Source: an uncultured Candidatus Rokubacteria bacterium (GTDB taxonomy: Bacteria > Methylomirabilota > Methylomirabilia > Rokubacteriales > DASRDR01). Taken from it: 64,000 bases of DNA. Below, in pieces: positions 4,053 through 40,201 of the stretch. The position numbers and the translations under genes were made by a program. The stretch covers positions 96,001 to 160,000 of the forward strand of contig CAWGVS010000010.1 in NCBI GenBank assembly GCA_963826115.1, written 5' to 3'. The notes beneath the pieces were generated by a model. It saw only the letters and a list, made by a program, of their open reading frames with translations. It ran no database searches and was not told where the DNA came from. Position 1 is the stretch's first letter. Every line of letters starts with the position of its first letter.

Positions 4053-4084
4053 CGACAGGATGTCGCCGAGACGACGCACTGTCG
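4053..4084. promoter_or_regulatory. tandem palindromic enhancer (bEBP UAS) pair
   Basis: CGACAGGATGTCG (4053) and CGACGCACTGTCG (4072), 19 bp apart. Confidence 0.75.
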
Positions 4085-4122
4085 TCCTCCGCGCCTTACC
4101 GTCCGATCTGAGGGCCTCGCCC

Positions 4123-5667
4123 TTACCGATCCGGAGGCGGATGCTTGATGAAGCTTCCGGTGAACGCCACGGAGTTCGGGAAGACGAGGGTCCGGCCGGT
4201 GGGCCCGAGCGGGTCGCCGGCGAGCTCCTGGAGCCGGGTGCGCACGAGCCCGATCTCGATCACCTCGCCGTGGAGGTACCCGAACGGCCCCTGGAGGCTG
4301 ACCCGGTCCCCGATGCGGATCCCGTTCGGCGCCACCATCGAGAAGTAGCCCGCCACGGCGAGGATCACGTTCTGGAGCGCGAAGGCGATCCCGGCGGCGG
4401 CGAATCCGAGCGCGGCAACGAGCGCCGTCAGCTCGCTCGCGAAGTGGAACACGAGCACCAGGGCGACCGCGGTCACGACGACGACGTGGCGCGCGGTCAG
4501 GACGAGCCGCCGATGGTAGCCGTTCTTGATGTAGCGGACGGCGGCGATCCGCCAGATCACCGAGCCCACCAGGATCCCGCCCAGCGCGATCGCGACGCCC
4601 ACCAGCTCGATGCCGAAGCCGCGGAGCACGTGTCCGATCTCGCGGTCGAGAGCATGCGCCCAGGCTTCCAGGTCGGCCGCGTAGCGCTGCAGGACCACGT
4701 ACTCCTCGCGGAGCGGCAGCACGACGGCCCCGGTCAGCTTGACGCGCCCGAGCAGGTCACGGAACTCCTGCTGTCCGGTGTCCAGCGCGATCCCGTCCGC
4801 GGCGGGGTCCTTGGCCAGCTGGCGGAGGCGCGTGACCATCGGGCGCACCGACTGCTGCGTCGTCCGGATGTCGGCGCCGACGGCCCGGGTCAGCTCGGCC
4901 GTCTGGCGCGTCAGCTCCTTGAGGGCGCCTCGGCTGCGTTGAAGGGCCAGGAGCCGGTACACGAGCATCCGGGGCCCGGCCGGCGGCATCCCTCGCCCCG
5001 CGGTCGTGACGACGGTCGACGGGCCAGCCGCCGGGGCGATCCCCGGCACGCTGTCCTGGAGCGCCTGGATGTCGTCCGTCAGGTCGGCGTCGTCTCCGGG
5101 GAGCGACGCGTCCACCTGGACGAGCTTGGTGACGAACTCGAGCTGGACCCGCCCGAACTCGAGCCGGTTGCTCGCGGCGGCGAGCTCCCGCTCGAGCCCC
5201 GGCCGTGTCGCGGGGGGCGCCGTGCGAAGGCGCGCCCGGAGGCGGGCGACCTCCTCCTCGTCGCGCGCGATGGCTGCCCGGATCTGGGCCTGCCGGTCCG
5301 CGCGGGCGCGCTGGCGGGACGTGGCGGCGCCGTTGGTCGAGCCGTCCTCCGTGACGATCTTGGCCTGCGCCCGCGCGGCGTCGAACGCCCGCAGGACCAC
5401 CCGCTGCGCCGTCTGCTGCTCGCCCCGGTCGAGGTCGGAGTCGAGCACGCCCCGGACGGACTGCATCGCGACGCGAGCGCCCTGGTACCAGGCGAGCGTC
5501 CGCTGGAGCGAGGCCTTGACGTCCTCCGTCGTCACCTCCGCCGCGGCTGTGGGGGCCGGCGGGTCGGCGCGGAGCGGGCGCCCGAGCACGCCCGTCTCCA
5601 GGAGCGCCAAGGTGGTGAGCGCGAGGCCGAGCGCGCGCGCCGAGCGACGTCGCGGAGTCGTGGTCAC
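4123..5667 (-). CDS. MscS-family mechanosensitive channel with long periplasmic coiled-coil N-terminus
   Basis: LGFAAAGIAFALQNVILAVAGYF...IRIGDRV...GEVIEIGLVRTRL...FPNS; signal-like N-terminus; start GTG 5667 inferred from the promoter position. Confidence 0.85.
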   Translation of the reverse strand: MTTTPRRRSARALGLALTTLALLETGVLGRPLRADPPAPTAAAEVTTEDVKASLQRTLAWYQGARVAMQSVRGVLDSDLDRGEQQTAQRVVLRAFDAARAQAKIVTEDGSTNGAATSRQRARADRQAQIRAAIARDEEEVARLRARLRTAPPATRPGLERELAAASNRLEFGRVQLEFVTKLVQVDASLPGDDADLTDDIQALQDSVPGIAPAAGPSTVVTTAGRGMPPAGPRMLVYRLLALQRSRGALKELTRQTAELTRAVGADIRTTQQSVRPMVTRLRQLAKDPAADGIALDTGQQEFRDLLGRVKLTGAVVLPLREEYVVLQRYAADLEAWAHALDREIGHVLRGFGIELVGVAIALGGILVGSVIWRIAAVRYIKNGYHRRLVLTARHVVVVTAVALVLVFHFASELTALVAALGFAAAGIAFALQNVILAVAGYFSMVAPNGIRIGDRVSLQGPFGYLHGEVIEIGLVRTRLQELAGDPLGPTGRTLVFPNSVAFTGSFIKHPPPDR

Positions 5668-5680
5668 GCGAGACTTCGGG

Positions 5681-5696
5681 TGCAAGGCGATTGCCA
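5681..5696 (-). promoter_or_regulatory. sigma-54 promoter of mscS-like gene
   Basis: TGGCAATCGCCTTGCA. Confidence 0.75.
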
Positions 5697-5719
5697 CGAC
5701 GTCTGGCGCGGACCACGTG

Positions 5720-5751
5720 AGAACGCTTGTCGCTCGCGCGACACCGTGTCG
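5720..5751. promoter_or_regulatory. tandem UAS pair between divergent promoters
   Basis: AGAACGCTTGTCG (5720) and perfect CGACACCGTGTCG (5739). Confidence 0.65.
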
Positions 5752-5782
5752 GGCCGCGCTACCGAGACGGTCCGCGCCGCCG

Positions 5783-5798
5783 GGGCATGCGGCTTGCT
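5783..5798 (+). promoter_or_regulatory. sigma-54 promoter of pafA
   Basis: GGGCATGCGGCTTGCT. Confidence 0.75.
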
Positions 5799-5812
5799 TC
5801 GTCGAGCTCGGG

Positions 5813-7165
5813 ATGAAGCGCCGCATCTTCGGCCTGGAGAACGAGTATGGCGTGACCTGCACGGCGGGCGGCCAGATGCTCCTCAGCGCCGACGTGCTCG
5901 CCCGCTACCTGTTCGAGGAGCTCCTCCCGTTCGCCATCACGCCGAACGTGTTCCAGGAGAACGGGGCGCGACTGTACGTCGACACCGGGTTCCATCCCGA
6001 GTACGCGACGCCCGAATGCGACGACCTGCTCGACCTGGTGGCGTACGACCGCGCGGGGGAGCGGATCCTTCAGGACCTGGTGCGGCGCGCGCAGCGGGCG
6101 CTGCCCGAGCGCGGGGTCCGCGGCCGCATCCAGGTGTTCAAGAACAACACGGACTCCGCCGGGAACTCCTACGGGTGCCACGAGAACTACCTCGTCTCGC
6201 GAGACACGCCCTTCGCGGCACTGGTGGAAGCGCTCATTCCGTTTCTCGTGAGCCGCCAGATCTTCGCGGGCGCCGGCAAGGTCTACCGGGGGCCGAACGG
6301 CGCCGAGTACCACCTGAGCCAGCGCGCCCAGCACATCGCGGACGAGCTGTCCGGGTCCACGGTCTCCGGGCGACCGATCATCAACACGCGCGACGAGCCG
6401 CACGCGGACGCTCAGCGCTTCCGTCGGCTGCACGTGATCGTCGGCGACTCGAACATGTCGGAGGTGGCCACCTACCTGAAGGTCGGCACGACCGCGCTCG
6501 TGCTGGACATGATCGAGGACGGGTTCCTGGAGTGTGATCTCCGGCTGGAGTCCCCCGTCGCAGCCCTGCGGGCGATCTCCGGCGATCCCACGCTGCGTGG
6601 GCGAGTGCGCCTTCGGGACGGCCGGGCCCTCAGCGCGTTGGAGCTCCAGCTGACCTATCTCGAGGCGAGCCAGGCGTACGTCCGGCGCGCGGGGTCGGAC
6701 CCGCGCGCGGAGGCGGTCCTCACGCGGTGGGCGGACGTGCTCGCGCGACTCGGCCGCGACCCGATGAGCGCGCACGGCCAGGTGGACTGGGTGGCCAAGA
6801 AGCGCCTCATCGACCGCTACCGGGAGAAGCACGGCTGCGCGCCGGAGGACCCCCGCCTGGCCTTGCTCGACCTCCAGTATCACGACGTCGACGAGGACCG
6901 CAGCCTCCACTATCTCCTCGCCCGCCGGAACGAGATCGAGCGGCTGGTCGCGGACGACCGCGTCGAGCGCGCGAAGCGCCGTCCTCCGCAGACGACGCGG
7001 GCGCGCCTCCGCGGCGACTTCATCCGCCGCGCCAACCTCCGGGGGTGGGAGTACCAGGTGGACTGGGCCTACGTGCGGACGATCGTCGGGGCGGACAGCC
7101 ACACGGTCGTCTGCCAGGATCCCTTCGTGGCCCACGACGAGCGCGTGGAGCGGCTGGTCGCCTGA
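5813..7165 (+). CDS. pafA: Pup--protein ligase PafA
   Basis: MKRRIFGLENEYG, NGARLYVDTGFHPEYATPEC, KNNTDSAGNSYGCHENYL (PafA-type; Dop has GKG here), RPIINTRDEPHAD, RRLHVIVGDSNMSE, PPQTTRARLRG, DPF. Confidence 0.92.
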   Translation: MKRRIFGLENEYGVTCTAGGQMLLSADVLARYLFEELLPFAITPNVFQENGARLYVDTGFHPEYATPECDDLLDLVAYDRAGERILQDLVRRAQRALPERGVRGRIQVFKNNTDSAGNSYGCHENYLVSRDTPFAALVEALIPFLVSRQIFAGAGKVYRGPNGAEYHLSQRAQHIADELSGSTVSGRPIINTRDEPHADAQRFRRLHVIVGDSNMSEVATYLKVGTTALVLDMIEDGFLECDLRLESPVAALRAISGDPTLRGRVRLRDGRALSALELQLTYLEASQAYVRRAGSDPRAEAVLTRWADVLARLGRDPMSAHGQVDWVAKKRLIDRYREKHGCAPEDPRLALLDLQYHDVDEDRSLHYLLARRNEIERLVADDRVERAKRRPPQTTRARLRGDFIRRANLRGWEYQVDWAYVRTIVGADSHTVVCQDPFVAHDERVERLVA

Positions 7166-7181: not shown

Positions 7182-7349
7182 TCAGTTCGGGCAGTTCACG
7201 ACCGCCCACACCGCCGGCTCACCGTCGGGCCAGGTCAGGACCGGGCAGACGACGACCTGCACGTTCTGGAGGCGCTCCACCAGCGCCCCGCCGGCGAAGA
7301 TCTGCTCCATCATCACGCTGATCAGGGTGGCCAGGTCCCGCTGATCCAT
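7182..7349 (-). CDS. 55-aa hypothetical small protein (absent from ORF track)
   Basis: GGAG RBS 7 nt before ATG; MDQRDLATLISVMMEQIFAGGALVERLQNVQVVVCPVLTWPDGEPAVWAVVNCPN; strong GC3 codon bias. Confidence 0.7.
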   Translation of the reverse strand: MDQRDLATLISVMMEQIFAGGALVERLQNVQVVVCPVLTWPDGEPAVWAVVNCPN

Positions 7350-7395: not shown

Positions 7396-7427
7396 AGACA
7401 CGGCGTCGCCGGGGCGCCAGCGTGGCG
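7396..7427. promoter_or_regulatory. tandem UAS pair
   Basis: AGACACGGCGTCG (7396) and CGCCAGCGTGGCG (7415). Confidence 0.6.
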
Positions 7428-7445: not shown

Positions 7446-8186
7446 TCAGGCGTCGCCGCGCCACGCGCGACCGCGCTCATAGCCCGCGCGGAACGCGGAC
7501 TCCTCTGACGCCGGCCCGTGACGATCGCGGAGCCGCGCGCGCGCCTCGTCGTACGGTGTCGCCTCCGCGCCGAGGCGCGCGGCGGCGTCGAATCCCTGGC
7601 GGTAGAGTGGCTCGTCCTTCTGAAAGTTGCCGCCCTGACGCGTGTACTCGACCTCCTCGGCGTTGCGGAGGCCGATCCACCACTCGTCTCGCGCGGCGTC
7701 CACGCTCTCGGCCCCGCACGACCGGAGGAGCTCGCGCACGCGGGCGGCCTCGGCCTCGTGGTCGGTCGTCACGACCACGAGGCTGCGCCCCTTGCGGAGC
7801 GCGTCCCGGTAGACGTAGAGCTCGTCGGTCGGGAGCCCCTTGGACAGGGCCTCGTCGAGCTTCGATCCGACCGCGCCACCGGTCATCGCGCCGACGAGCC
7901 CGAGGACGACCGCACCGGCCAGGAGGACGGGGCCGACGCCCGGCAGCACCAGCGACGCGGCCGCGAGGCCACCGGCGGTGCCGGCGGCGCCGCCGACCAC
8001 ACCGCCGATCGTCCCGCCGATGCCCGGCGCCTCGGCGTCGGTCGTCGGCACCGCGCGGACCGCGCGCTCCGGCTCCGCGGGCGCGAGCAGGCTCACGTGA
8101 CGGTCGGGGATTCCGATCTGGCGAAGGGCCTCGACGATGCGCTGCGCGTCCGACTGCCGGGATACCACGCCGACGACCGCCTGCAT
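7446..8186 (-). CDS. general stress protein (17M/YflT-like with glycine-zipper membrane segment)
   Basis: MQAVVGVVSRQSDAQRIVEALRQIGIP...GGVVGGAAG...LPGVGPVLLAG...GLPTDELYVYRDALRKGRSLVVV; GAGGAGGAG RBS. Confidence 0.75.
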   Translation of the reverse strand: MQAVVGVVSRQSDAQRIVEALRQIGIPDRHVSLLAPAEPERAVRAVPTTDAEAPGIGGTIGGVVGGAAGTAGGLAAASLVLPGVGPVLLAGAVVLGLVGAMTGGAVGSKLDEALSKGLPTDELYVYRDALRKGRSLVVVTTDHEAEAARVRELLRSCGAESVDAARDEWWIGLRNAEEVEYTRQGGNFQKDEPLYRQGFDAAARLGAEATPYDEARARLRDRHGPASEESAFRAGYERGRAWRGDA

Positions 8187-8230: not shown

Positions 8231-8246
8231 AGCAAGAGGGGTGCCA
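8231..8246 (-). promoter_or_regulatory. sigma-54 promoter
   Basis: TGGCACCCCTCTTGCT. Confidence 0.85.
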
Positions 8247-8280
8247 CCGGCCGGCATCGGGGTTGCACCGTGTGTGAGGC

Positions 8281-9276: not shown

Positions 9277-9293
9277 CGGGGAGAGCGCCGACG

Positions 9294-9983: not shown

Positions 9984-10047
9984 GGGCGTCATCTCCTGGT
10001 GTTCGCGGGACGGGCCACGGGTGTCCCGGTTGTTTGACCAGGAAATG

Positions 10048-10063
10048 AGCAAGGCACATGCCA
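10048..10063 (-). promoter_or_regulatory. sigma-54 promoter of M48-psiE
   Basis: TGGCATGTGCCTTGCT. Confidence 0.85.
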
Positions 10064-10129: not shown

Positions 10130-10161
10130 CGCCAGCGCGTCGCGCGCTCGACACCGTGTCG
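10130..10161. promoter_or_regulatory. tandem UAS pair
   Basis: CGCCAGCGCGTCG (10130) and CGACACCGTGTCG (10149). Confidence 0.75.
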
Positions 10162-10775: not shown

Positions 10776-10819
10776 GTCGGGTCTCCTGTCTCGCGGGCGC
10801 GGGCCCGCGGCGTCATCGG

Positions 10820-16952: not shown

Positions 16953-16964
16953 GCCGGCGGAGGA

Positions 16965-16980
16965 TGCAACCGCGATTCCA
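16965..16980 (-). promoter_or_regulatory. sigma-54 promoter of NTase-glgX-treY-EncFtn operon
   Basis: TGGAATCGCGGTTGCA. Confidence 0.7.
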
Positions 16981-17091
16981 CGCGCGATGCCGTGGCGTCC
17001 TGCCGCGCGGGTGCAGATGCAACATGCGACGGACGCACGTGGCGGCGCGCGGACCGCCGGTTCTCGGTCCGGACCGGTATGCGACTTGCGG

Positions 17092-17123
17092 CGACACGAT
17101 GTCGTGCGCGCGACATCGTGACG
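17092..17123. promoter_or_regulatory. tandem UAS pair
   Basis: CGACACGATGTCG (17092) and CGACATCGTGACG (17111). Confidence 0.8.
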
Positions 17124-17169
17124 GCGCACTCGATGGAGCGCCGGATCGAGACGAGAGGTCCGAAGGCGA

Positions 17170-17412: not shown

Positions 17413-17440
17413 GCTCGACCTCCTTCACGCAGCAGGGGAG

Positions 17441-17456
17441 AGCAAGGCACGTGCCA
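17441..17456 (-). promoter_or_regulatory. sigma-54 promoter
   Basis: TGGCACGTGCCTTGCT (consensus). Confidence 0.9.
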
Positions 17457-17531: not shown

Positions 17532-17585
17532 CGCCACCATGTCGTGCGCGCGCCGCCGTGTCATGCGCGAGACGCGTGATAGACT
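17532..17585. promoter_or_regulatory. tandem UAS pair overlapping the putative sigma-70 promoter of the two-component operon
   Basis: CGCCACCATGTCG (17532) and CGCCGCCGTGTCA (17551); -35-like GTGTCA 17558-17563 and extended -10 TGaTAGACT 17577-17585. Confidence 0.65.
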
Positions 17586-17594: not shown

Positions 17595-19073
17595 GTGGGA
17601 CTGCGATTTCGCCTGGTCCTACTGCTCTTGGTGCCGATGACGCTCGTCGTCGCGGCCTTCGCGTACGTCTTGGTCCGGGAGCAGCGAGCCCAGCGGCGGG
17701 CGGAGTTCGACCTGCGCGTGAGCGTCACGAGCGCGGCGATTCGGCTCGCGGTGGAGAACGCGCTCCGGAGCGGGACCCTCGCCGACGTCGAGCGGCTGGC
17801 TCACGACCTGGTCGTGAAGCAGACGGAGATCGTGCGGATCCGGCTGCTGGATCGCGGCCTCGTCTCCCGCGTCGACGTGAACCTCTTCGCCGGGGGCGCC
17901 GGGGTGTCTCCCGACGAGCCCCGTCGGGTCCGCGACACGGGCCAGCCGACGGCCGTCGAGTACAAGGGCGGGGACACTCGCTTCCAGAGCGTGCTCCTGC
18001 CCGCCCGATCGGCCATCGACGGCGACGGCGTCCTGGAGGTCACCTTCCTGTCGGGCCGCCTGGAGGCCGATCTCCTCGGCGAGACCTACAAGATCGCGTT
18101 CCGTGGGGCGGTGCTGGTTCTCCTGTTGGGCCTGGTCGTGTGGGTCGCGTTCCAGCGCCTGGTGTTCCGTCCGGTCGCCGACCTCATGCAGGGGATCGAG
18201 CGCGTGGCGGCCGGGGAGGCGAGCGCGTCGGTTCCCGTGCGGCGCCGCGACGAGCTGGGTCAGGTGGCGGCGGCGTTCAACCGGATGGCCGAGCGGGTGC
18301 GGGAGGCCCGGCACCAGGTCGAGACCGAGACCGACCGGTCGCTCGAGCTCATGCGCCGGCTCCGGCAGACCGAGTCGCTGGCGATCGCCGGCAAGCTCTG
18401 CTCGAGCATCGCGCACGAGGTGGGGACGCCGCTCAACATCATCGCGGGGCGCGCGGAGCTCATGCTCCGAGCCCTTCCCAAGGACTCGCCACTCCGCGAG
18501 GACCTGAACGTCATCGTCACGCAGATCGACCGGATCTCGCGGATGATCCGGGCGGCCCTCGATCCCTTCCGGCAGCGCCAGCCCGAGCGGGCCGCGGTCG
18601 CGCCCGGTTCGGTGACCGAGGGGCTCCGGCCGCTCCTCCAGCACTTTGCCAAGAGCCGTGGCGTCACCCTGTCGGTGTCCATCCCGCCCGGGATCGCGCC
18701 GGTGTACGTCGACTCGGGCCATCTCCAGCAGGTCCTGATCAATCTCCTGACGAATGCCATCGAAGCCACCCCGTCCGGCGGGCGCGTCGAGGTGACGGCC
18801 GCGCCCAGCGCCAACGACGACCGGCCGGGCGTGGCCGTCGTCGTGCGGGACACGGGGTCGGGCATCTCGGAGGACGTCCTCCCCCGGATCTTCGATCCGT
18901 TCTTCAGCACGAAGCCGGCCCGCGACGGCGCGGGCCTCGGACTCGCGATCTGCCGAGACCTCGTCCGGTCGAACGGCAGCGACATCCAGGTTGCGAGCAA
19001 GCTCGGCGAAGGCACGGCCTTTACCGTCTGGCTGCCCGAGGCTGGGTCCGAAGGCAGGAAGGAGCAGTCATGA
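17595..19073 (+). CDS. membrane HAMP sensor histidine kinase
   Basis: Two TMs, HAMP (RRDELGQVAAAFNRMA), IAHEVGTPLNII, QVLINLLTNA, DTGSGI, FDPFFSTK, GAGLGL. Confidence 0.93.
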   Translation: MGLRFRLVLLLLVPMTLVVAAFAYVLVREQRAQRRAEFDLRVSVTSAAIRLAVENALRSGTLADVERLAHDLVVKQTEIVRIRLLDRGLVSRVDVNLFAGGAGVSPDEPRRVRDTGQPTAVEYKGGDTRFQSVLLPARSAIDGDGVLEVTFLSGRLEADLLGETYKIAFRGAVLVLLLGLVVWVAFQRLVFRPVADLMQGIERVAAGEASASVPVRRRDELGQVAAAFNRMAERVREARHQVETETDRSLELMRRLRQTESLAIAGKLCSSIAHEVGTPLNIIAGRAELMLRALPKDSPLREDLNVIVTQIDRISRMIRAALDPFRQRQPERAAVAPGSVTEGLRPLLQHFAKSRGVTLSVSIPPGIAPVYVDSGHLQQVLINLLTNAIEATPSGGRVEVTAAPSANDDRPGVAVVVRDTGSGISEDVLPRIFDPFFSTKPARDGAGLGLAICRDLVRSNGSDIQVASKLGEGTAFTVWLPEAGSEGRKEQS

Positions 19074-20437
19074 GATCCCGGATCCTGGTGGTGGACAACG
19101 ACGCCGACATGGTGGCGCTCCTGCGCCGTCACCTCGAGGTGGAGGGCTGGTCGGTGACGGCCGTGACGACCGGCGAGGACGCCCATGCCGCGCTGGCGCG
19201 CGAGGAGTACGCGGTCGTCCTGACCGACCTGGTCATGGAGCCGGTGGATGGGCTGGCCGTGCTGCGCGAGGCCCAGAAGGTCCAGCCGCGAGCGCGCGTC
19301 GTCCTCATGACGGCGTTCGGCAGTCTCGAGAGCGCGATCGACGCCATGCGCCAGGGTGCGTACGACTACCTCATGAAGCCGTTCAAGCTGCCGGAGCTGT
19401 CGGTGGTCGTCAACCGCGCCGTCGAGGACCAGCAACTGCGGGAGGAGAATCGCCGGCTCCGGGCCGAGGTCGAGCGCCGGTACAGCTTCGACAACATGCT
19501 CGGCCGCTCGAAGGCGATGCAGTCCGTGTTCGACCAGATCCGGGCGGTGGCGGACACCGACGCGCCGGTCCTCCTGCTCGGGGACAGCGGGTCGGGAAAG
19601 GAGCTGGTCTCGCGGGCCATCCACTGGCACAGCGGTCGCCGGGACGGGCCGTTCGTGGCCGTCAACTGCGCCGCGATTCCCGAGACCCTGCTGGAGTCCG
19701 AGCTCTTCGGCCACGAGCGGGGCGCCTTCACCGGCGCCGACCGGAAGCGCCGGGGCCTGTTCGTCGAAGCCCAAGGGGGCACGCTGCTGCTCGACGAGAT
19801 CGCTGAGATGCCGCAGTCGCTCCAGGTCAAGCTCCTGCGGGCCCTGCAGGACCGCGTGGTGCGGCCGGTCGGCGGGAACGAGGAGATCAAGGTGGACCTG
19901 CGCCTGATCAGCGCGACCAACCGCGACCTCCCGACGTTCGTGCGTCAGGCGAAGTTCCGGGAGGACCTCTACTACCGACTGGCGGTCATCCCGATCCGGA
20001 TCCCGAGCCTCCGGGAGCGGCCGGAGGACATCCCGCTTCTCGCCGAGCACTTCCTGAAGCGCGCGGCCGGGGGCATGGGCAAGGAGATCGAAGGCTTCGA
20101 CGAAGAGGCGCTCAAGTGGCTCCACGAGCACACGTGGCCGGGCAACGTCCGCGAGCTGGAGAACGTCGTGGAGCGCGCGGCGACGCTCGCCCGCGGGCGA
20201 CTCATCACGCGGGACGACCTCCGGATCGAGTTCACGCCGGGCTCCAGCAGCGAGCTGGGCGTGCGTCCCACGCTGGCCGAGGTCGAGACCCAGTACATCC
20301 GCCGAATCCTCGACGAGGTCCGGGGTGACAAGCGGGCGGCGGCCCGCATCCTCGGGATCAGCGTGCGGACGCTCCAGCGGATGCAGGCCAACCTGGTGCG
20401 GGTGGGTCCCGGCTTGCCTGAACCCCCGCAGCCGTGA
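19070..20437 (+). CDS. sigma-54-dependent NtrC-family response regulator (REC-AAA+-Fis HTH)
   Basis: Receiver domain; GDSGSGKE Walker A; ESELFGHERGAFTGA; LLLDEI; FREDLYYRL; WPGNVRELEN; GDKRAAARILGISVRTLQR. Confidence 0.96.
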   Translation: MRSRILVVDNDADMVALLRRHLEVEGWSVTAVTTGEDAHAALAREEYAVVLTDLVMEPVDGLAVLREAQKVQPRARVVLMTAFGSLESAIDAMRQGAYDYLMKPFKLPELSVVVNRAVEDQQLREENRRLRAEVERRYSFDNMLGRSKAMQSVFDQIRAVADTDAPVLLLGDSGSGKELVSRAIHWHSGRRDGPFVAVNCAAIPETLLESELFGHERGAFTGADRKRRGLFVEAQGGTLLLDEIAEMPQSLQVKLLRALQDRVVRPVGGNEEIKVDLRLISATNRDLPTFVRQAKFREDLYYRLAVIPIRIPSLRERPEDIPLLAEHFLKRAAGGMGKEIEGFDEEALKWLHEHTWPGNVRELENVVERAATLARGRLITRDDLRIEFTPGSSSELGVRPTLAEVETQYIRRILDEVRGDKRAAARILGISVRTLQRMQANLVRVGPGLPEPPQP

Positions 20438-24052: not shown

Positions 24053-24068
24053 AGCAAGCTCTGTGCCG
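24053..24068 (-). promoter_or_regulatory. sigma-54 promoter
   Basis: CGGCACAGAGCTTGCT. Confidence 0.8.
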
Positions 24069-24133: not shown

Positions 24134-24165
24134 GGACACGCTGTCGCCTTCCGGACACCGTGTCG
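24134..24165. promoter_or_regulatory. tandem UAS pair
   Basis: GGACACGCTGTCG (24134) and GGACACCGTGTCG (24153). Confidence 0.8.
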
Positions 24166-26011: not shown

Positions 26012-26027
26012 AGCAAGTCATGTGCCA
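26012..26027 (-). promoter_or_regulatory. sigma-54 promoter
   Basis: TGGCACATGACTTGCT. Confidence 0.88.
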
Positions 26028-26112: not shown

Positions 26113-26144
26113 CGTCACCGCGTCGTGCGCCCGACAGCGTGGCA
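26113..26144. promoter_or_regulatory. tandem UAS pair between divergent promoters
   Basis: CGTCACCGCGTCG (26113) and CGACAGCGTGGCA (26132). Confidence 0.7.
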
Positions 26145-26210: not shown

Positions 26211-26226
26211 AGGCACATGCCTTGCA
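26211..26226 (+). promoter_or_regulatory. sigma-54 promoter
   Basis: AGGCACATGCCTTGCA. Confidence 0.82.
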
Positions 26227-27538: not shown

Positions 27539-27554
27539 AGCAACAAGGCTGCCT
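27539..27554 (-). promoter_or_regulatory. sigma-54 promoter of csbD-BON-DUF3309
   Basis: AGGCAGCCTTGTTGCT. Confidence 0.75.
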
Positions 27555-27665: not shown

Positions 27666-27697
27666 TGTCATGGTGGCGTCGAGGCGACACCCTGACG
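27666..27697. promoter_or_regulatory. tandem UAS pair
   Basis: TGTCATGGTGGCG (27666) and CGACACCCTGACG (27685). Confidence 0.65.
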
Positions 27698-27725: not shown

Positions 27726-27741
27726 TGGCACTGCCCTCGCT
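27726..27741 (+). promoter_or_regulatory. sigma-54 promoter
   Basis: TGGCACTGCCCTCGCT. Confidence 0.65.
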
Positions 27742-29926: not shown

Positions 29927-29942
29927 TGCGAAACGCATGCCG
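29927..29942 (-). promoter_or_regulatory. sigma-54 promoter of AI-2E gene
   Basis: CGGCATGCGTTTCGCA. Confidence 0.65.
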
Positions 29943-29995: not shown

Positions 29996-30027
29996 CGTCG
30001 TCGTGTCGCCACCACGACACCGTGGCG
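29996..30027. promoter_or_regulatory. tandem UAS pair between divergent promoters
   Basis: CGTCGTCGTGTCG (29996) and CGACACCGTGGCG (30015). Confidence 0.7.
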
Positions 30028-30082: not shown

Positions 30083-30098
30083 CGGCACAGGGATTGCC
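30083..30098 (+). promoter_or_regulatory. sigma-54 promoter
   Basis: CGGCACAGGGATTGCC. Confidence 0.75.
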
Positions 30099-30130: not shown

Positions 30131-30208
30131 ATGCGCGCGTTGATCCTGTATCTGCTGGGCGTTCCGGTTCTCGTGATCGTGGTCCTGTGGGTGTTCGGTG
30201 TCGTGTAG
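30131..30208 (+). CDS. 25-aa single-TM peptide
   Basis: GAGGAGG RBS; MRALILYLLGVPVLVIVVLWVFGVV. Confidence 0.7.
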   Translation: MRALILYLLGVPVLVIVVLWVFGVV

Positions 30209-30558: not shown

Positions 30559-32292
30559 ATGACCCTCGACGACCTGTTCCTCTTCGTGCAGCGTGGGATC
30601 GATCGGCTGATCCGGCGGCTCAGGCTCGGCGCCCCGCCGCCCGTGGGCCGGCGACGCCTCCTGGTGGTCCAGATCGACGGGCTGTCGCGTGCCGTGCTCG
30701 AGGCGGCCCTGGCTCGCGGGGACATGCCGGTCCTCCACGAGCTCCTCGGGCATCCAGCCGGACGGCCCCGCCGGGGCCGGCGCCCATCGCGACGGGGCCA
30801 CGGCAGTCACCGGCTCTGCTCGATGACGGTCGGCCTCCCGACGTCGACGCCGGCGTTCCAGATGGCGGCGATGTACGGCGTCCAGCCGGACATCCCGGGC
30901 TTCCACTATCACGACAAGCGGCGCGGGACCGACATCCACTTCCCCCACGCGGGTCACGCCGCCTTCGTCGAGGCGAGCCAGGCGGGCGGGCGGTCCGGCA
31001 TCCTCCGGGGCGGCAGCGTCTACGGATGCGCGTTCACGGGGGGCGCCGAGCACGACTTCTTCAGCTTCGCCCGGCTCACGCGGCCGCGCGCCCCCGGGCT
31101 CGTCCGCGTCCTGTCGGCGTTCGTGCTCGTCGGATGGGTGACGGCCAAGAGCGCGGCGCTCTCCGGCGCCGAGGTCGTCCGGACGCTGGGCGGTGTCGCG
31201 CGGCACCCCCGCCGGCGCGCCGACGCGTGGCGATGGCTGAAGAAGCGGATCGGCGTATCGGTGTGGACGCGCCAGTGGTTCACGTTCGCGGTGGCCCGCG
31301 ATGTCTACGACGGGGTGCCGGCCATCTACGTCAACTACCTCGACCACGACGAGGGGGCGCACGCCTTCGGCCCGCGGAGCGCGGCCGGGTTCGCGGGCCT
31401 CCGCGCGGTCGACCGCTCGCTCCGGCAGATCCGGCGCGCGCTCCGGCGCGTGCCCGAGCATCGCTACGACCTCTACATCCTCTCGGATCACGGCCAGGCC
31501 GCCTGCACCGCATACTCCACGCTGCGCGGCGGCCGGCGGTTCGAGCGGGCCTTCTTCGACGAGGTCCTGCCGGGCATCGGCGGGGCAGGCTCCCGGTCGA
31601 CGAGGCCGTGGCTGGCCGGCCCGCTCGCGTCCGGCGCCGCGGCCGGCCGCGGGCGGGCGATCGAGCTCGGCTTCGCGCCCTATCTCGACGTGCGCGAGTC
31701 GTGGGAGCAGGACGGCGTCCGCGTGGTCTCGGCCGGGCCGAACGCGTTCGTCTACTTCCTCGACGCGCCCGAGCCGCTCCTGCTCGACGCGATCGAGTCC
31801 CGCCGACCCGGATTGCCCGCCGTCCTCTCCAAGAGTCCCGGCGTCGGGTTCGTGCTCGCTCGATCGGCGGCCGGCCCCGTCTGCTTCTGGCGCGGCCTGA
31901 CCTATCGTCTCGGGGACCACGCCGGTCCGTTCGCCGACCGGGAGGACCGCGCGGTCCTGGTCCGGGACCTCTCGACCCTGATGGCGATGCCGAGCGCCGG
32001 CGATCTCGTGGTCTACGGCACCGGGGCCCCGGAAGGCCACGTGTCCTTCATCGACGAGATCGGCGCCCACGCCGGCCCGTCGCCGGAGGAGCTCCATACC
32101 TTCGTCGTCGCACCCGCGTCGGCGCGCATGCCGGAGTCGATCGACCACCCGCTCCAGCTGTACCCGCTGTTCCTCGCCTACCAGTTCGGCGGCGCGGAGT
32201 CCGAGGTCGAGCCGGTCGAGGACGATGACAAGCTGTCGGCGCGGCGACACGGCCACGGGTCGCCGCCCTGGCGGTGCGCGGTCTCGGCTTGA
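30559..32292 (+). CDS. alkaline phosphatase superfamily (type I phosphodiesterase-like) protein
   Basis: LVVQIDGLS, LPTSTPAFQ, YLDHDEGAHAFGP, ILSDHGQ, GAHAG. Confidence 0.8.
   Translation: MTLDDLFLFVQRGIDRLIRRLRLGAPPPVGRRRLLVVQIDGLSRAVLEAALARGDMPVLHELLGHPAGRPRRGRRPSRRGHGSHRLCSMTVGLPTSTPAFQMAAMYGVQPDIPGFHYHDKRRGTDIHFPHAGHAAFVEASQAGGRSGILRGGSVYGCAFTGGAEHDFFSFARLTRPRAPGLVRVLSAFVLVGWVTAKSAALSGAEVVRTLGGVARHPRRRADAWRWLKKRIGVSVWTRQWFTFAVARDVYDGVPAIYVNYLDHDEGAHAFGPRSAAGFAGLRAVDRSLRQIRRALRRVPEHRYDLYILSDHGQAACTAYSTLRGGRRFERAFFDEVLPGIGGAGSRSTRPWLAGPLASGAAAGRGRAIELGFAPYLDVRESWEQDGVRVVSAGPNAFVYFLDAPEPLLLDAIESRRPGLPAVLSKSPGVGFVLARSAAGPVCFWRGLTYRLGDHAGPFADREDRAVLVRDLSTLMAMPSAGDLVVYGTGAPEGHVSFIDEIGAHAGPSPEELHTFVVAPASARMPESIDHPLQLYPLFLAYQFGGAESEVEPVEDDDKLSARRHGHGSPPWRCAVSA
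32226..32257. promoter_or_regulatory. tandem UAS pair inside the 3' end of the upstream CDS
   Basis: TGACAAGCTGTCG (32226) and CGACACGGCCACG (32245, weaker). Confidence 0.5.
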
Positions 32293-32340: not shown

Positions 32341-32356
32341 TGGCATGCCACTCGCA
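32341..32356 (+). promoter_or_regulatory. sigma-54 promoter
   Basis: TGGCATGCCACTCGCA. Confidence 0.7.
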
Positions 32357-34422: not shown

Positions 34423-36473
34423 TCAGGACGAGTGCGCGGAGCACCTCGGCCACGCTCCACGCCTGCGCGATGCACCCGCGCGGCGTGAACGGCGCCTCGG
34501 CGTCGAAGATCTCGCTGATACTGCCGACGCACGCCTCGTCGAGGTGCGGCCAGAAGCCGTCGAGCAGGCTGCGGGCCGTCGCCCGGTCCTCGGGGTGGAC
34601 GCGGAGCCAGGCGTCGACGAACGGGCCGATGAGCCAGGCCCAGACCGTGCCCTGGTGGTAGGCCGCGTCGCGCGCTCGGAGGTCGCCGTCATACGTCGCC
34701 TTGTAGTCGGGGTGGCCGGGGGCCAGCGATGCGAAGTCCGACCGGCGTGAGGAGGCGGGTCCGGACCACCGTCAGCACCGGCGGCCACCGCGCCTCGGTC
34801 CAGGACCGGGTGGCGGAGCGAGATGGCGAACAGCTGGTTGGGCCGGCAGGCCGCATCGTCGCCTGCTCGCCGTCGACCACGTCGTAGAGGTAGCCGCCGT
34901 CGGCGTACCAGAAGCGGCGGTTGAACGACGCGCGCGCGTTCGGCGGCCCGGGCCGCCAACGCCGCCGCGGGCTCGTCGCCCTCTTCCTCCCGGAGCCACC
35001 CCTCGAGGAGCCGGAGGGCGTTGTACCAGAGCGCGTTGATCTCGACCGCCTTGCCGCGCCGCGGCGTCACCACCCAGTCGTCGACCTTGGCGTCCATCCA
35101 GGTGAGCTGGTAGCCGTCCGCGCCCTGGCGGAGCAGACCGTCCGCCGGGTCGACGCCGATGCCGAACCGCGTGCCGGCGAGGTGGTGGTCCACGATCGCG
35201 ACCAGGGTCGGCAGGAGGAGCGCGGAGCGTGCCGCGGTCCGCCGTCGCCGCGAGGTAGCGGTCGAGGGCGTGGAAGTACCAGAGGCGTCGCGTCGGCCGT
35301 GTGGTAGAGCCCGTCCCGCGCGCCTTCCGGGAACATGTTGGGGATCAGGCCGTCGCGCACGTAGTGGGCGAACGTGCGCAGGATGTAGCCGGCCTCGACG
35401 TGGCGGCCCGTGAGCAGGGTCAGGCCCTCGAGGCTGATCATCGTGTCGCGTCCCCAGTCGGTGAACCAGTGGTAGCCGGCGATGATCGTGCCGCGCCTCG
35501 TCGCCGGTCGCCGCGCGCGAGCGCGGCGTCCGCCACGCGCCCCGCCGGCGTGATGACGAACTGGTCGGCGGCCAGCACGAGCTCCGCGGCCGGCCCGGTC
35601 CGGGCGAGCGGATGCGCGGCCGCGAGCAGGCGCCGTCGCCGCACGCGCTCGGCGCGCTCGGCGGTCTCGGGATCGAGCGCGTCGCATGGCCTCCCACGAC
35701 TCGGTCGAGGCGACGAGGGTGCTCGCTTCGCTCCGGCTCGAGCGTCACGCGGAAGTACCCGGGGCTCCAGAGGTCACCGGTCGCCTCGTAGCCGCGACTC
35801 TCCTCCACCGGGTACAGGACCTGCTGGATCGTGTGCCCCGACACGCGGAAGGCGGCGGCCGGGCCGTGCATGCGGAACCGGAGCGCGCGGGAGCTCCGGC
35901 GTCGCGAAGAGCTCGTAGCGATCGCCCACGACCGTGAGCCGCGTAGGGCCCGGCCAGGGGATCGCTCACGGGCCGCTCGTGCGGGCGGAAGTGGACCGCC
36001 GGCCGCACGTGGAGATCGAACGGGGCCGGCGCCGGCGATGCAGCCGGTAGCTCACGTGGACGGTGTTCTGGCGGTAGGGCAGCAGCAGGCGCTTCTCGAG
36101 GGCGACCGCGGCCGAGCTCGTACCGCCAGACCGGCAGCCCGCTCTCCAGGCGGAACTCCGCGAGGTCCAGGAGCTCGCGCCGGCTTCGCCGCTCGCCGTC
36201 GACCTCCCGCCCGTCGCGGGAGCGGCGACGCCGGCGTCCGCCAGGTCGAGTCGCTCGTGCAGGTGGCTCAGCATGATCATCCGGCCGAGCGGCGCCGGGA
36301 GCGCGGCGATCAGCAGCCCGTGGTAGCGGCGCGTCATGCGCGCCGGACACCGTTCCCGACGCGTAGCCGCCGAGCCCGTTGGTCACCAGCCACTCGCGCG
36401 TGCGCCGCGCCGCCGGGTCTCGGCGGACGTCACGTGCGGGCCAGGCGGATGCGGCGCGACCAGCTCGGCTCAT
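34423..36473 (-). CDS. amylo-alpha-1,6-glucosidase (glycogen debranching enzyme family), multiply frameshifted
   Basis: Fragments EWLVTNGLGGYASGT, TRRYHGLL, IIAGYHWFTDWGRDTMISLEGL, GLIPNMFP, QLTWMDAK, PRRGKAVEINALWYNAL, RPNQLFA. Confidence 0.8.
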
Positions 36474-38389
36474 CCCACACGCCGTCGAAGCACCAGCGCC
36501 GCGCTGGCCCGGGAGGCCCCACGCACGCCGTCGGGATCCACCGCCGGCGTCCCGAGCCGCCGTAGCGGATCGCTTCGCTCGACCAGCGGAGCTGCCAACG
36601 CGCCCCGGCCGGCGGTGCGAGCAGCGGCTCGGCGACCGAGGGCAGCGTGAGGTCACGGCCGAGGTTGACGCAGCAGCAGGCGGTCGCCCGCCTCGGCGCG
36701 TTCCCCGAAGAAGCGCAGCACGAACGCCTCCGGTCCGAGCACGGCGCCGTCGACCCCGCTTCGCCGCTGCGCGCGGAAGACCGGGTCCTCCCGGCGCAGG
36801 CGGAGCAGGTCGCGGTGGAGCGCATAGGCGGCGGCGTGTCGCTCGCGCTCCGCGAAGTCGAGCTTGCAGCGCTCGAACGTCGCCGGTCGCGCCGGGTCGG
36901 GGACCGCCGCCTGCGCCTCGGCGCCGCGCGAGGCTCGGGAACTGGCGCGAGGAACTGGCGCGCGCCCCGCCCGGACCCGCTTCGCCAGCTCGGGCTCGTG
37001 GTCGGCGAAGTAGAGGAACGGGCTGGACGCGGCGAACTCCTGCCCCTGGAACAGCATCGGCGTGCCCGGCGCCGAGCAGCAGCAGCGCCGTCATCGCGCG
37101 GTAGCGCCCGGGGCTGGTCAGCGCGGTCGCCGCGGAGCCCGCCGGGCGGAGTTGGCGACCTGGTCGTGGTTCTGCGATGAAGTGCACGAAGCGACGCGGG
37201 CGCGAGGTCCGAGCGCCGGCGTGCCGCGCCGCTTGCCTCTGCCACGCGTAGCGCTGCCCCTGGTAGAGGTAGCCGCGCTTGACCGCCGAGATGAGCTCCT
37301 GCGGCGTGCCCGCGGTAGTCGCGTGTAGTAGGCCTCGGCGCGGCCGGTCAGCGCGACGATCGCGCGCGTGGTGGAAGTCGTCGTTCCACAGCGCGTCGAG
37401 GCCGTAGCCGCCGCTGCTCGGCGGGCGCGACGAGGCGCGCGTCCTGCGGCTCGTTCTCGGCGACGACGAAGATCGCGCGGCCGCCGGCCGCCGGCCCGCG
37501 CCTGGCGCGCGATCGCGGCCAGGATGTGCTCGCGGCGAGCGCGTCGAAGATCGTCCTGCGTCGCGTCGAGCCGCAGGCCGTCGAGGTGGAACTCGTCGAT
37601 CCAGTAGCCGGCGTTGGCGACGAAGAACTCGCGCACCGGCCCGGCGCCCGCGCCGTCGAAGTTGATCGCCTCGCCCCACTCGGTGCGCGTGACGCGTCGG
37701 TGAAGTAGGCCGGCGCAGAACTGCGCCAGGTAGTTGCCGTCGGGCCCGAGGTGGTTGTAGACGACGTCGAGGATCACGCCGAGGCCGAGCGCGTGGGCGC
37801 GGTCGACGAAGCGCGCGGAAGTCGTCGGGCCGGCCGTAGAGGCGCGTCGGCGCGAACAGATCGACGCCGTCGTAGCCCCAGCCGAAGTCGCCCGGGGAAC
37901 TCGGCGACCGGCATGACCTCGAGCACGGTGATGCCCGAGCGTCGGCCAGCTCCGGCAGCTCGCGGCGCGGCCGCGTCCCAGGTGCCCTCCGCGCGTGAAC
38001 GTGCCGACGTGCATCTCGTAGACGACCTGGCCCTCGCGCCGGACGCCCGGCCAGCGCGCCGTCGGTCCACGCGAAGGCGCCCGGGTCGACGACCTGCGAC
38101 GGGCCGTGCGGCCCCTCCGGCTGGAAGCGCGACGCGGGATCGGGCAGCGGCCCGGCCCGCCGTCGAGCCGGTACGCGTAGGTCGCTCCCGCCCGGACGCC
38201 GGCGACGAGACCGGCGTGGTACCCGTCGGGCTCCGTGGCGAGGGCGACGTGGCGATCGTGGAGCTCGACCTCCACGCTCGTGGCCGCCGGCGCCCACACG
38301 CGGAAATGCGCGCCGCTGCCGTCGGGGACGAGCTCCGCGCCGACCGGCAGGCGGCGCCATGCGGGGGGCGAGGGGGGGCGCGTTCGCAC
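36470..38389 (-). CDS. treZ: malto-oligosyltrehalose trehalohydrolase, multiply frameshifted
   Basis: HFRVWAP, PDPASRFQPEGPHGPSQVVDP, YEMHVGTF, WGYDGV, DVVYNHLGPDGNYL, DEFHLDGLRLDATQ, WNDDFHH, QNHDQVAN, MLFQGQEF. Confidence 0.82.
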
Positions 38390-38402
38390 AGCGGGACCTC
38401 GG

Positions 38403-38418
38403 GGCAACTTCTATACCA
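38403..38418 (-). promoter_or_regulatory. sigma-54 promoter of treZ operon
   Basis: TGGTATAGAAGTTGCC. Confidence 0.75.
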
Positions 38419-38493
38419 GACAACGGCCGCGTGCGCCGCTCCGGTCCGGCCGGAGAACGCCGCCCGCGCTCGAAGACGGTCTCACGGCCCGGG

Positions 38494-38525
38494 CGCCACC
38501 GTGTCGCCGCGACGACACCGTGACG
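38494..38525. promoter_or_regulatory. tandem UAS pair between divergent promoters
   Basis: CGCCACCGTGTCG (38494) and CGACACCGTGACG (38513). Confidence 0.82.
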
Positions 38526-38628
38526 TTAGTAGGCCGGGATCTGACACGGCTTCGTCCCGGTCGTGATCGCGCACAAATGCGCGCGTGGAGCGCTCCGCGG
38601 CCCACGCCGCCCGCGCTCCGGATCGCGG

Positions 38629-38644
38629 TGGCACCCGGCTTGCT
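38629..38644 (+). promoter_or_regulatory. sigma-54 promoter
   Basis: TGGCACCCGGCTTGCT. Confidence 0.88.
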
Positions 38645-38699
38645 CCGACACCCTGGTATGCGCAATGAGCGGATCGTGGACATTCAGGGAGGCGTGAGC

Positions 38700-39383
38700 A
38701 TGACGACTGAGTTCCGTACCCTCATCACCGTGGCGGCGCTGGCGGCCCTCGTCGGCACGGCCGATGCCGGTTCGGCGCCCGCGCCGAAGACCGTGGCGGC
38801 GACGTCGGCCAAGGCGACGGAGCCCATCAAGGACACGAAGCGGTTCGCCGAGAACGCCGGCCTCTCGCGGGCGAGCTCGGTGATCGGAAGCAGCGTGAAG
38901 GATCTGTCCGGCAAGGACGCCGGAAAGGTCGAAGACCTCCTGCTCGACTACCGCGGACACGTCGGCTACGCCGTGGTGTCGTTCGGCGGGTTCCTGGGCA
39001 TCGGCGACAAGCTGTACGCGGTGCCGTGGGACGCCGTGATCGTGGATCAAGAGAAGCGGACGGTCTACCTCGACGTGAAGAAGGAAGCACTCGAGCACGC
39101 CCCGAGCTTCTCGTCCGACAAGTGGCCCGAGCAGAACGATCGCACGTGGGGCCAGGCAGTCAAGAAGGCCTGGAGCGATGCCTCGATCACCGCTTCGGTC
39201 AAGACGAAGCTGGCGGGCACGGCGCCCGCCACGCTCCTGAAGGTCGACGTCGACACGACCAACGGGATCGTGCAGCTGAACGGCACGGTCGACAGCGACA
39301 AGACGCGCCAGCGCGCGACCGAGCTGGCCCGTCAGGTCGACGGGGTGCGCCGCGTGGTGAACAACCTCAGGGTGCAGAGCTAG
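38700..39383 (+). CDS. secreted PRC-barrel + BON domain protein
   Basis: RASSVIGSSV...GKVEDLLLD...YAVVSFGGFLGIGDKLYAVPW, then a BON domain (DASITASVKTKL...VDGVRRVVNNL); GGGAGG RBS. Confidence 0.88.
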   Translation: MTTEFRTLITVAALAALVGTADAGSAPAPKTVAATSAKATEPIKDTKRFAENAGLSRASSVIGSSVKDLSGKDAGKVEDLLLDYRGHVGYAVVSFGGFLGIGDKLYAVPWDAVIVDQEKRTVYLDVKKEALEHAPSFSSDKWPEQNDRTWGQAVKKAWSDASITASVKTKLAGTAPATLLKVDVDTTNGIVQLNGTVDSDKTRQRATELARQVDGVRRVVNNLRVQS

Positions 39384-39496
39384 CGCTCGCATCTCGAGGG
39401 GGCTCGTCTCGCGGCCTCGCGGAGCCCGGGAGCGCCGGCTTGGCGCCGCCCGGGCTCCGTCCGTCGACCGCATCACCGAACCGCAAGGAGGGTCTC

Positions 39497-40144
39497 GTGG
39501 CGAAGAACGCCGGTTCCAGCGCGCCGAAAGCCTACCGCCCGCGTGAGTTCGATCTCGCGGGACTTGCAGGCATCTCCGACGCCCAGATCGAGGAGCACCT
39601 CGCGCTCTACGCGGGATACGTGAAGCAGGTGAACGCCTTGAACCAGGGGCTGGCCGAGCTGCGCGGTCGCGGCCAGGCGTCGAGCAAGAGCCCGGAGTTC
39701 GCCGAGCTCACGCGCCGGCTCGGCTTCGAGTACAACGGCATGATCCTGCACGAGTACTACTTCGGCAACCTGCGCGCCGCCGCGGACCCTGCGCCGCCAG
39801 GGCGGTCGGGCCTGTCGGAGGCGCTCGCCGGCTCGTTCGGGTCCGTCGAGCACTGGCGGACGGACTTCCAGGCGATCGGCGGGATGCGAGGGGTTGGCTG
39901 GGCGGTCCTCTTCCAGGATCCGGTCACCGAGCGCCTGACCAATCACTGGATCTCGCTGCACCAGGACGGCGTGCCCGCGGGATTCAAGCCGCTCCTGGTG
40001 ATGGACGTCTGGGAGCACGCGTACATGCGCGACTACAAGGCGACCGAGCGCGACCGGTACATCGAGGCGTTCTTCCGGAACATCGACTGGTCCGCGGTCG
40101 AGACGCGGCTCCAGGACGAGCGCGCCGTCCGGCCCGCGGCCTGA
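39497..40144 (+). CDS. Fe/Mn superoxide dismutase family protein
   Basis: EEHLALYAGYV, LHEYYF, GWAVL, PLLVMDVWEHAY...YIEAFFRNIDW; AAGGAGG RBS. Confidence 0.88.
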   Translation: MAKNAGSSAPKAYRPREFDLAGLAGISDAQIEEHLALYAGYVKQVNALNQGLAELRGRGQASSKSPEFAELTRRLGFEYNGMILHEYYFGNLRAAADPAPPGRSGLSEALAGSFGSVEHWRTDFQAIGGMRGVGWAVLFQDPVTERLTNHWISLHQDGVPAGFKPLLVMDVWEHAYMRDYKATERDRYIEAFFRNIDWSAVETRLQDERAVRPAA

Positions 40145-40169
40145 GCGGTCGTCATGCTGTCCGGCGTCC

Positions 40170-40201
40170 CGTCACGCTGTCGTCGCGACGACACCGTGGC
40201 G
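40170..40201. promoter_or_regulatory. tandem UAS pair
   Basis: CGTCACGCTGTCG (40170) and CGACACCGTGGCG (40189). Confidence 0.8.

Follow-up and report, generated by a model that had tools for sequence, protein, structure and literature searches.

A 32-bp four-half-site palindrome and a candidate sigma-54-dependent stress regulon in a Candidatus Rokubacteria genome

A 64,000-nucleotide stretch from an uncultured Candidatus Rokubacteria bacterium (assembly GCA_963826115.1, contig CAWGVS010000010.1, positions 96,001 to 160,000; hereafter, the window) contains 13 copies of a 32-bp palindromic element made up of four half-sites, which are confined to one island and lie mostly in intergenic DNA, next to matches to the sigma-54 promoter consensus. 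Judged from the sequence, this element is likely to be the enhancer of a sigma-54-dependent stress and dormancy regulon, worked by a kinase/activator pair encoded in the same island.

Number, spacing and anatomy of the element

An earlier note on this DNA had named 13 positions as starts of a tandem operator, and tandem pairs, each consisting of two 13-mers at a start-to-start distance of 19 bp, are indeed present at all of them. They are listed here with their scores in a strand-symmetric position weight matrix (PWM) built from the 13 sites, in bits, and with the position of the site centre relative to the predicted start points of the sigma-54-like promoters described below, i.e.:

4053..4084, tandem site 1, PWM 31.8; promoter 3812(-), which precedes two GvpA-like genes
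5720..5751, tandem site 2, PWM 23.7; divergent, centre at about -66 of 5681(-) and about -74 of 5783(+)
7396..7427, tandem site 3, PWM 28.7; between 7446-8186(-) and 7182-7349(-), no promoter nearby
10130..10161, tandem site 4, PWM 30.5; centre at about -108 of 10048(-), before the genes for an M48 protease and PsiE
17092..17123, tandem site 5 and best match, PWM 39.8; centre at about -154 of 16965(-), before the nucleotidyltransferase-GlgX-TreY-EncFtn genes
17532..17563, tandem site 6, PWM 29.6; centre at about -118 of 17441(-), adjoining the kinase/activator operon
24134..24165, tandem site 7, PWM 28.7; centre at about -108 of 24053(-), before a PCC-domain gene
26113..26144, tandem site 8, PWM 30.4; divergent, centre at about -128 of 26012(-) and about -108 of 26211(+)
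27666..27697, tandem site 9, PWM 32.3; divergent, about -154 of 27539(-) (CsbD, BON, DUF3309) and about -70 of 27726(+)
29996..30027, tandem site 10, PWM 31.0; divergent, about -96 of 29927(-) (AI-2E transporter) and about -98 of 30083(+)
32226..32257, tandem site 11, PWM 24.3; within the 3' end of gene 30559-32292, about -126 of 32341(+)
38494..38525, tandem site 12, PWM 38.4; divergent, about -146 of 38629(+) (PRC-BON, superoxide dismutase) and about -118 of the weaker 38403(-)
40170..40201, tandem site 13, PWM 38.8; centre at about -106 of 40266(+), before a DUF1328 gene

The consensus given earlier, CG[N]CA-N3-TG[N]CG twice, is exact in three of these sites (17092, 38494 and 40170), whereas the remaining ten deviate from it by one to three mismatches in the 16 fixed positions. 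In the window, which has a G+C content of 72 %, the exact degenerate consensus is matched three times, compared with zero matches in each of 100 dinucleotide-preserving shuffles. With up to three mismatches there are 18 matches versus 2.33 expected (largest shuffle, 9), i.e. the 13 listed sites and five extra ones, each of the latter with three mismatches and together about the number expected by chance. Since all 11 matches with at most two mismatches are among the listed sites, the list is complete and not cherry-picked. Exact single palindromes occur 19 times (3.18 expected), 13 of them inside the listed pairs. By PWM, the 13 sites score 23.7-39.8 bits and the next best position of the window 16.2, with maxima of 12.8 on average and 20.2 at the most in 30 first-order Markov simulations; when each site is left out of the matrix that scores it, scores range from 14.4 to 36.9, and 11 sites still reach at least 24.0.

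The spacing of 19 bp, which had been claimed to be invariant, is the only one that is enriched: with at most one mismatch per palindrome, nine pairs are found at this distance and no more than three at any other between 5 and 60 bp. At up to two mismatches per palindrome (978 matches) the signal is drowned, with 19 pairs at 19 bp versus a null mean of 11.1 and higher counts at other spacings.

The PWM finds no tandem site outside 4-40 kb of the window, including none in 41-64 kb. With genes called from third-position G+C, 11 of the 13 sites are intergenic, and 12 of 13 is the better figure, because site 10130 falls in an over-extended open reading frame (ORF) call; intergenic positions make up about a quarter of the island (9402 of about 38200). 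The frequency of the motif pair in coding or non-island DNA had been put forward as a check on the proposal, and the sites are mostly intergenic and all within the island. As a negative control only, 80 loci (1,212,398 bases) around paralogues of the activator protein described below (39-50 % identity), including two Rokubacteria/Methylomirabilota loci, contained no position of 14 bits or more.

The element reads CGACA, N3, TGTCG, N6, CGACA, N3, TGTCG (half-sites H1 to H4), with CGNCA-N3-TGTCG-N6-CGACA-N3-TGNCG as the consensus over the sites. Counted over 65 positions per half-site in the 13 sites, mismatches number 15 and 12 in the outer half-sites versus 4 and 5 in the inner pair, and the information in H1 to H4 amounts to 4.9, 6.8, 6.6 and 5.5 bits, figures that are partly circular because the sites had been chosen on the pattern. 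Exact TGTCG-N6-CGACA occurs six times and exact CGACA-N3-TGTCG four times, while nearly all other spacings of these words occur at most once; at up to one mismatch, the inner dyad is found 14 times versus 4.7 expected, with 11 of these matches inside listed sites. Conservation is limited to the element itself, i.e. 0.86 bit per position within the site compared with 0.14-0.16 in the 40-bp flanks.

The half-site centres lie 11 bp apart in the inner dyad, i.e. about one helical turn, and 8 bp apart in the 13-mers. One-turn spacing is usual for NtrC-like regulators, as in the GCGCA-N5-TGCGC dyad reported for NmpR (PMC11841059). For the two dimers proposed in the earlier note, the register of one dimer per 13-mer is not favoured, given the better conserved inner half-sites. 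From the sequence, a dimer may sit on each 13-mer, or one dimer may nucleate on the inner dyad and leave the outer half-sites to further subunits; neither register is proven.

As a separate observation, the right N3 spacer (positions 25-27) is CCG in seven of the 13 sites, while its mirror image CGG occurs once in the left spacer. The element is thus polar on the plus strand, independently of promoter direction, albeit in small numbers.

Coupling to sigma-54-like promoters

Promoters were scored against the -24/-12 consensus TGGCAC-N5-TTGCW (22 points at maximum, strong from 20 points), and the term promoter denotes a consensus match throughout. A near-identical form of this consensus is printed in PMC9765219. 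The promoters next to the sites are:

3812..3827, minus strand, sigma-54-like promoter, score 21 of 22
5681..5696, minus strand, sigma-54-like promoter before the MscS-like gene 4123-5610, score 21
5783..5798, plus strand, sigma-54-like promoter before pafA 5813-7165, score 20
10048..10063, minus strand, sigma-54-like promoter, score 21
16965..16980, minus strand, weaker sigma-54-like promoter, score 19
17441..17456, minus strand, sigma-54-like promoter before the small CxxC ORF 17170-17322, score 22
24053..24068, minus strand, sigma-54-like promoter, score 21
26012..26027, minus strand, sigma-54-like promoter, score 22
26211..26226, plus strand, sigma-54-like promoter, score 21
27539..27554, minus strand, sigma-54-like promoter, score 20
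27726..27741, plus strand, sigma-54-like promoter, score 20
29927..29942, minus strand, weaker sigma-54-like promoter, score 18
30083..30098, plus strand, sigma-54-like promoter, score 20
32341..32356, plus strand, weaker sigma-54-like promoter, score 19
38403..38418, minus strand, weaker sigma-54-like promoter, score 18
38629..38644, plus strand, sigma-54-like promoter, score 22
40266..40281, plus strand, sigma-54-like promoter, score 20

Strong promoters occur 17 times in the window versus 2.3 times expected (maximum of five in 30 simulations), all of them within 2.8-41 kb and 16 of the 17 outside gene calls. At nine of the 13 sites, a strong promoter points outwards with its start point 60-160 bp from the site centre, compared with 0.30 for random positions (maximum 4) and 1.55 for random intergenic positions of the island (maximum 5; 2000 draws), which bears out the view of the sites as upstream activating sequences (UAS), in kind. 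Lowering the score to at least 18 and widening the distance to 40-300 bp brings the count to 12 of 13 sites, and divergent promoter pairs flank five of them (5720, 26113, 27666, 29996 and 38494). The earlier note put most sites about 55-110 bp upstream of a sigma-54 promoter, which roughly holds provided that both strands are read; the edge of the site and the -24 element are 24-112 bp apart in 16 site-promoter pairs and 226 bp apart in another.

The association also emerges independently of the earlier list. Among 386 5-mers counted in the 2715 bp between -220 and -40 relative to the 17 strong promoters, CGACA/TGTCG ranks second in enrichment (22 occurrences versus 7.7 expected, p 2e-5), and the top 5-mer, GCATG/CATGC, probably derives from neighbouring -24 elements.

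The candidate regulator and competing explanations

Two genes of the island are candidates for operating the sites, i.e.:

17595..19073, plus strand, sensor histidine kinase (HAMP, HisKA, HATPase_c; from Pfam and translation), candidate signal input
19070..20437, plus strand, NtrC-type response regulator and sigma-54 activator (from Pfam and sequence), candidate site binder

Of 83 ORFs scanned against Pfam (35 were scanned against NCBIfam), 19070-20437 alone encodes a protein with a Sigma54_activat domain. The domains of this protein (Response_reg, Sigma54_activat, AAA_lid_14 and HTH_8) are those of an NtrC-family response regulator of the bacterial enhancer-binding protein (bEBP) type, and the activator sequence includes the GAFTGA loop, a Walker A motif (GDSGSGKE) and LLLDEI. 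The gene is translationally coupled to that of the membrane histidine kinase, and the 720-bp gap upstream of this operon holds two of the 13 sites. Considering its location and its uniqueness in the island, the activator is likely the protein that binds the sites. The single activator postulated by the earlier note fits with one common motif across about 17 promoters, while the choice of this particular protein follows from location only.

The activator stayed below the cutoff of each of the six named bEBP models (curated NCBIfam equivalogs) tested, i.e. AtoC (454.9 vs 714), NtrC (429.9 vs 558.6), the PEP-CTERM regulator (429.5 vs 502.6), ZraR (408.1 vs 760), GlrR (395 vs 763) and NifA (364.7 vs 528.85). 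Its best 120 database relatives share 71-94 % identity, and all organism-named ones are labelled Methylomirabilota or Candidatus Rokubacteria/Rokuibacteriota, names that by themselves place the window in this phylum. When 16 of these 120, picked to cover 71-93 % identity, are aligned with the activator, the helix-turn-helix shows almost no variation, which says little on specificity because that segment is conserved across the whole class.

In the mechanism that we propose, the sensor kinase 17595-19073 would phosphorylate the activator 19070-20437, whose dimers would bind the four half-sites by their C-terminal Fis-type helix-turn-helix and assemble into an ATPase ring. From about 65-155 bp upstream, this ring would open complexes of sigma-54 RNA polymerase at promoters on one side of the site or on both, and thereby switch on trehalose and glycogen turnover, gas-vesicle-type proteins, a Pup ligase, an MscS-like channel and proteases, as well as an encapsulated ferritin, superoxide dismutase, CsbD, BON, PRC and small membrane stress proteins. 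The inducing signal would probably be osmotic, desiccation or starvation stress.

Several observations weigh against this explanation. Site 17532 ends 32 bp before GTG 17595, the earliest start codon that the kinase gene could use, and is therefore too near to be a normal upstream enhancer of the kinase operon; the only plus-strand sigma-54-like match in that gap (17350) has an atypical -12 element and would place sites 17532 and 17092 at about +172 and about -268, respectively, and no sigma-70-type promoter for the operon was found in 16800-17700. Site 4053 lies about 268 bp from the start point of its promoter, and site 7396, between two same-strand genes, has no sigma-54-like match within 300 bp. 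Conversely, the strong promoters 8231(-), 8252(+) and 20440(+) have no nearby site, not even a degenerate one, by PWM or by eye. When left out of the matrix, sites 5720 (14.4) and 32226 (18.9) fall inside the null range and are singly not beyond chance, although both have a perfect inner core and an adjoining promoter. Sites and promoters show no significant helical phasing (at 10.5 bp, Rayleigh p 0.075 over 16 distances), and the lower p values at 9.5-10 bp arise because several periods were scanned. Moreover, rpoN is not in the window, and the genome beyond it probably encodes many other activators. For the unusual placements there are precedents, since the regulome of Desulfovibrio, as reported in PMC4641369, includes a few enhancer sites that are over 300 bp upstream of the promoter concerned, or 40-70 bp downstream of it.

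The promoters without a site may be served by another activator or by a distant site such as 7396, which is about 820 bp from 8231/8252. The latter two form a divergent, nearly overlapping pair (8231-8267). The third (20440-20455) starts 3 bp past the stop codon of the activator gene and precedes a single-domain response regulator (20468-20908).

An unlikely yet still serious alternative is that the sites are sigma-54 enhancers bound by a different activator encoded outside the window, the local pair being a mere member or neighbour of the island. In its favour, the visible genome is limited to 64 kb, and the position of the site next to the kinase gene would be an odd one for autoregulation. 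It also draws on the three strong island promoters that do not carry the motif, because of which at least one other activator or type of site would seem to act in the island. On the other hand, the local activator is the sole one in the island and has two of the 13 sites in the gap before its operon; genes for regulators of this kind are commonly located next to their targets, and the proteins often bind the promoter of their own operon, as reported for NmpR (PMC11841059) and Nla28 (PMC9765219).

We consider it very improbable that the element is the operator of a conventional repressor or co-regulator and not the binding site of an AAA+ activator. A palindromic sequence would suit such an operator, as would the positions of site 17532, just upstream of a start codon, and of site 7396, between two genes of a likely operon. 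Against this, the sites are centred 66-154 bp upstream of predicted start points and overlap no -24/-12 element, and one site often serves two divergent promoters, as is typical of enhancers; a repressor operator is unlikely for these reasons. In addition, sigma-54 promoters cannot fire without an activator, and an activator site is therefore required there, while the 5-mer enrichment near the 17 strong promoters brought up no other shared motif beyond promoter-derived words.

The least tenable proposal, i.e. that the element acts as a repetitive extragenic palindrome (REP)-like sequence, an RNA hairpin or a terminator instead of a protein-binding site in DNA, can appeal to stable RNA hairpins in three of the six sites folded (z -3.2 to -3.8), to a mildly raised complementarity of the spacers (18 of 39 positions versus about 30 % expected from composition) and to the location of sites 4053, 7396 and 40170 shortly downstream of stop codons, but the other three folded sites do no better than shuffles (z -0.8 to +1.4), the flanks are unconserved, most sites stand upstream of promoters and not in 3' ends, and the window has no Rfam match and no tRNA. 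With such mixed folding and unconserved flanks, and with no T-run or other terminator-like site in 16800-17700, the element was not assigned to REP-like sequences or intrinsic terminators.

Putative target genes, significance and known systems

The genes behind the sites, with operon extents inferred from gene order, speak for the enhancer function that we favour and form a coherent osmotic, desiccation, oxidative stress and dormancy set:

site 4053: two GvpA-like genes (2802-3551, minus strand)
site 5720: MscS-like channel (4123-5610, minus strand) and Pup ligase PafA (5813-7165, plus strand)
site 10130: M48 protease and PsiE (8749-9992, minus strand)
site 17092: sugar-phosphate nucleotidyltransferase, GlgX, TreY and encapsulin-type ferritin EncFtn (10389-16874, minus strand)
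site 17532: 50-residue CxxC protein (17170-17322, minus strand)
site 24134: PCC-domain protein
site 26113: YtxH/GvpQ-like, holin-X-like and DksA-like proteins; on the other strand, a small unknown protein
site 27666: CsbD, BON and DUF3309
site 29996: AI-2E-type transporter; on the other strand, a hydrophobic peptide of 25 residues together with a phosphodiesterase-like protein
site 32226: 128-residue unknown protein
site 38494: PRC-barrel/BON protein with superoxide dismutase; on the other strand, a second TreZ and debranching-enzyme region that seems to be frameshifted
site 40170: DUF1328

PafA is recognized by TIGR03686 (562.8 bits, cutoff 551.3); no proteasome or Pup gene was recognized in the window. 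Likewise, the encapsulin-associated ferritin-like protein that ends the trehalose/glycogen operon (10389-10775, minus strand) matches TIGR04535 (135.9 bits, cutoff 125), and no encapsulin shell gene was recognized in the window. The label MscS-like for the 495-residue product of 4123-5610 is a lead from the ESM Atlas only, where the MscS channel domain is present in the nearest clusters (score 0.99, 240 of 256 features); neither Pfam nor NCBIfam gave a match.

Two tiny ORFs stand directly behind site-linked promoters, i.e. 30131-30208 on the plus strand (25 residues, hydrophobic) and 17170-17322 on the minus strand (50 residues, two CxxC pairs), and neither matches a family. On the minus strand at 34423-38423 and 51097-52125, family matches (TreZ-like CBM48/amylase/DUF3459, the debranching enzyme domains GDE_N/GDE_C, and DctP) are split across adjacent ORFs in different frames, which suggests frameshifts, i.e. 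pseudogenes or indel errors of the assembly. Finally, a cluster of genes for glycosyl-, methyl- and acyltransferases at 58000-64000, possibly an acquired polysaccharide locus, has a G+C content of 64-66 %, down from about 72-74 %.

Rokubacteria and other Methylomirabilota are common in soils, and we know of no cultured member that is open to genetic work. Our literature search, which covered titles, abstracts and passages of articles, returned no paper describing sigma-54 regulation in Methylomirabilota or Rokubacteria, none on such a site by title or abstract for the half-site words together with sigma-54, and no description of this regulon in the literature on stress, trehalose or enhancer-binding proteins; the main text of a 2025 survey of sigma-54 regulons (PMC12316311) contains no occurrence of Methylomirabil- or Rokubacter-. 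The 32-bp site, about 17 promoters and the candidate activator amount to a ready-made testable regulon, and the motif could be used for mapping the stress regulon across metagenome-assembled genomes. The regulon would join in one response genes for Pup ligase, GvpA-like proteins, encapsulated ferritin, CsbD, BON and PRC proteins, which, to our knowledge, are rarely seen under sigma-54 control.

It is tempting to speculate, with a good deal more reserve, that the general stress and dormancy response of Methylomirabilota (Rokubacteria) is run by sigma-54, with one kinase/activator pair and a compact bidirectional four-half-site enhancer, and not by a factor of the sigma-B, sigma-S or EcfG type. 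If true, this would constitute a phylum-wide master switch for survival of desiccation and starvation in an abundant uncultured soil lineage, and the conserved inner dyad with its weaker outer half-sites would point to a nucleating dimer that recruits further subunits and not to two equal dimers.

The closest solved structure to the activator is NtrC1 of Aquifex aeolicus (PDB 4l4u, 1ny5; full-length match over residues 4-438, E 1.1e-107), with the same three-domain layout, a likeness that concerns the protein only. The UAS of NifA is TGT-N10-ACA, and the inner dyad TGTCG-N6-CGACA formally has this form in seven of the 13 sites. In contrast to NifA, the present activator lacks a GAF domain and carries a receiver domain, the element has outer half-sites, and the targets are unrelated to nitrogen fixation.

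More similar in function is Nla28 of Myxococcus xanthus, a sigma-54 activator for starvation and spore formation with tandem 8-bp half-sites, CT(C/G)CG(C/G)AG (PMC9765219). Both systems serve many promoters for entering a resistant dormant state, with several half-sites per promoter, but the half-site spacing reported for Nla28 is variable (mean 25 bp), whereas it is invariant here, in a four-half-site palindrome.

NmpR, also of M. xanthus, binds two GCGCA-N5-TGCGC dyads with a preferred gap of 14-15 bp near sigma-54 promoters (PMC11841059). As described there, NmpR too is an NtrC-type response regulator that is paired with a kinase. In both systems the sites consist of two dyads at a preferred distance from each other, are mostly intergenic and stand no further than a few hundred bp from a -24/-12 promoter; both also have a site at the operon of the regulator itself and several operons in the regulon. 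The systems differ in the half-site words and in geometry (here 13-bp dyads, a 6-bp gap and centres 19 bp apart, versus about 29-30 bp in NmpR), in the packing of 13 sites into one 37-kb island, in the response (stress and dormancy here, oxygen use in NmpR) and in that the present one is known from its sequence alone.

The word novel, as applied to the element in the earlier note, therefore holds for an undescribed regulon and not for the design, since pairs of dyads set at a preferred distance close to sigma-54 promoters are the standard pattern of NtrC-like regulators, as reported for NmpR and Nla28 (PMC11841059, PMC9765219). What is particular here is the TGTCG/CGACA word, the four-half-site palindrome with its 19-bp spacing, the dense packing of 13 sites and about 17 promoters into 37 kb, the set of genes and the lineage.

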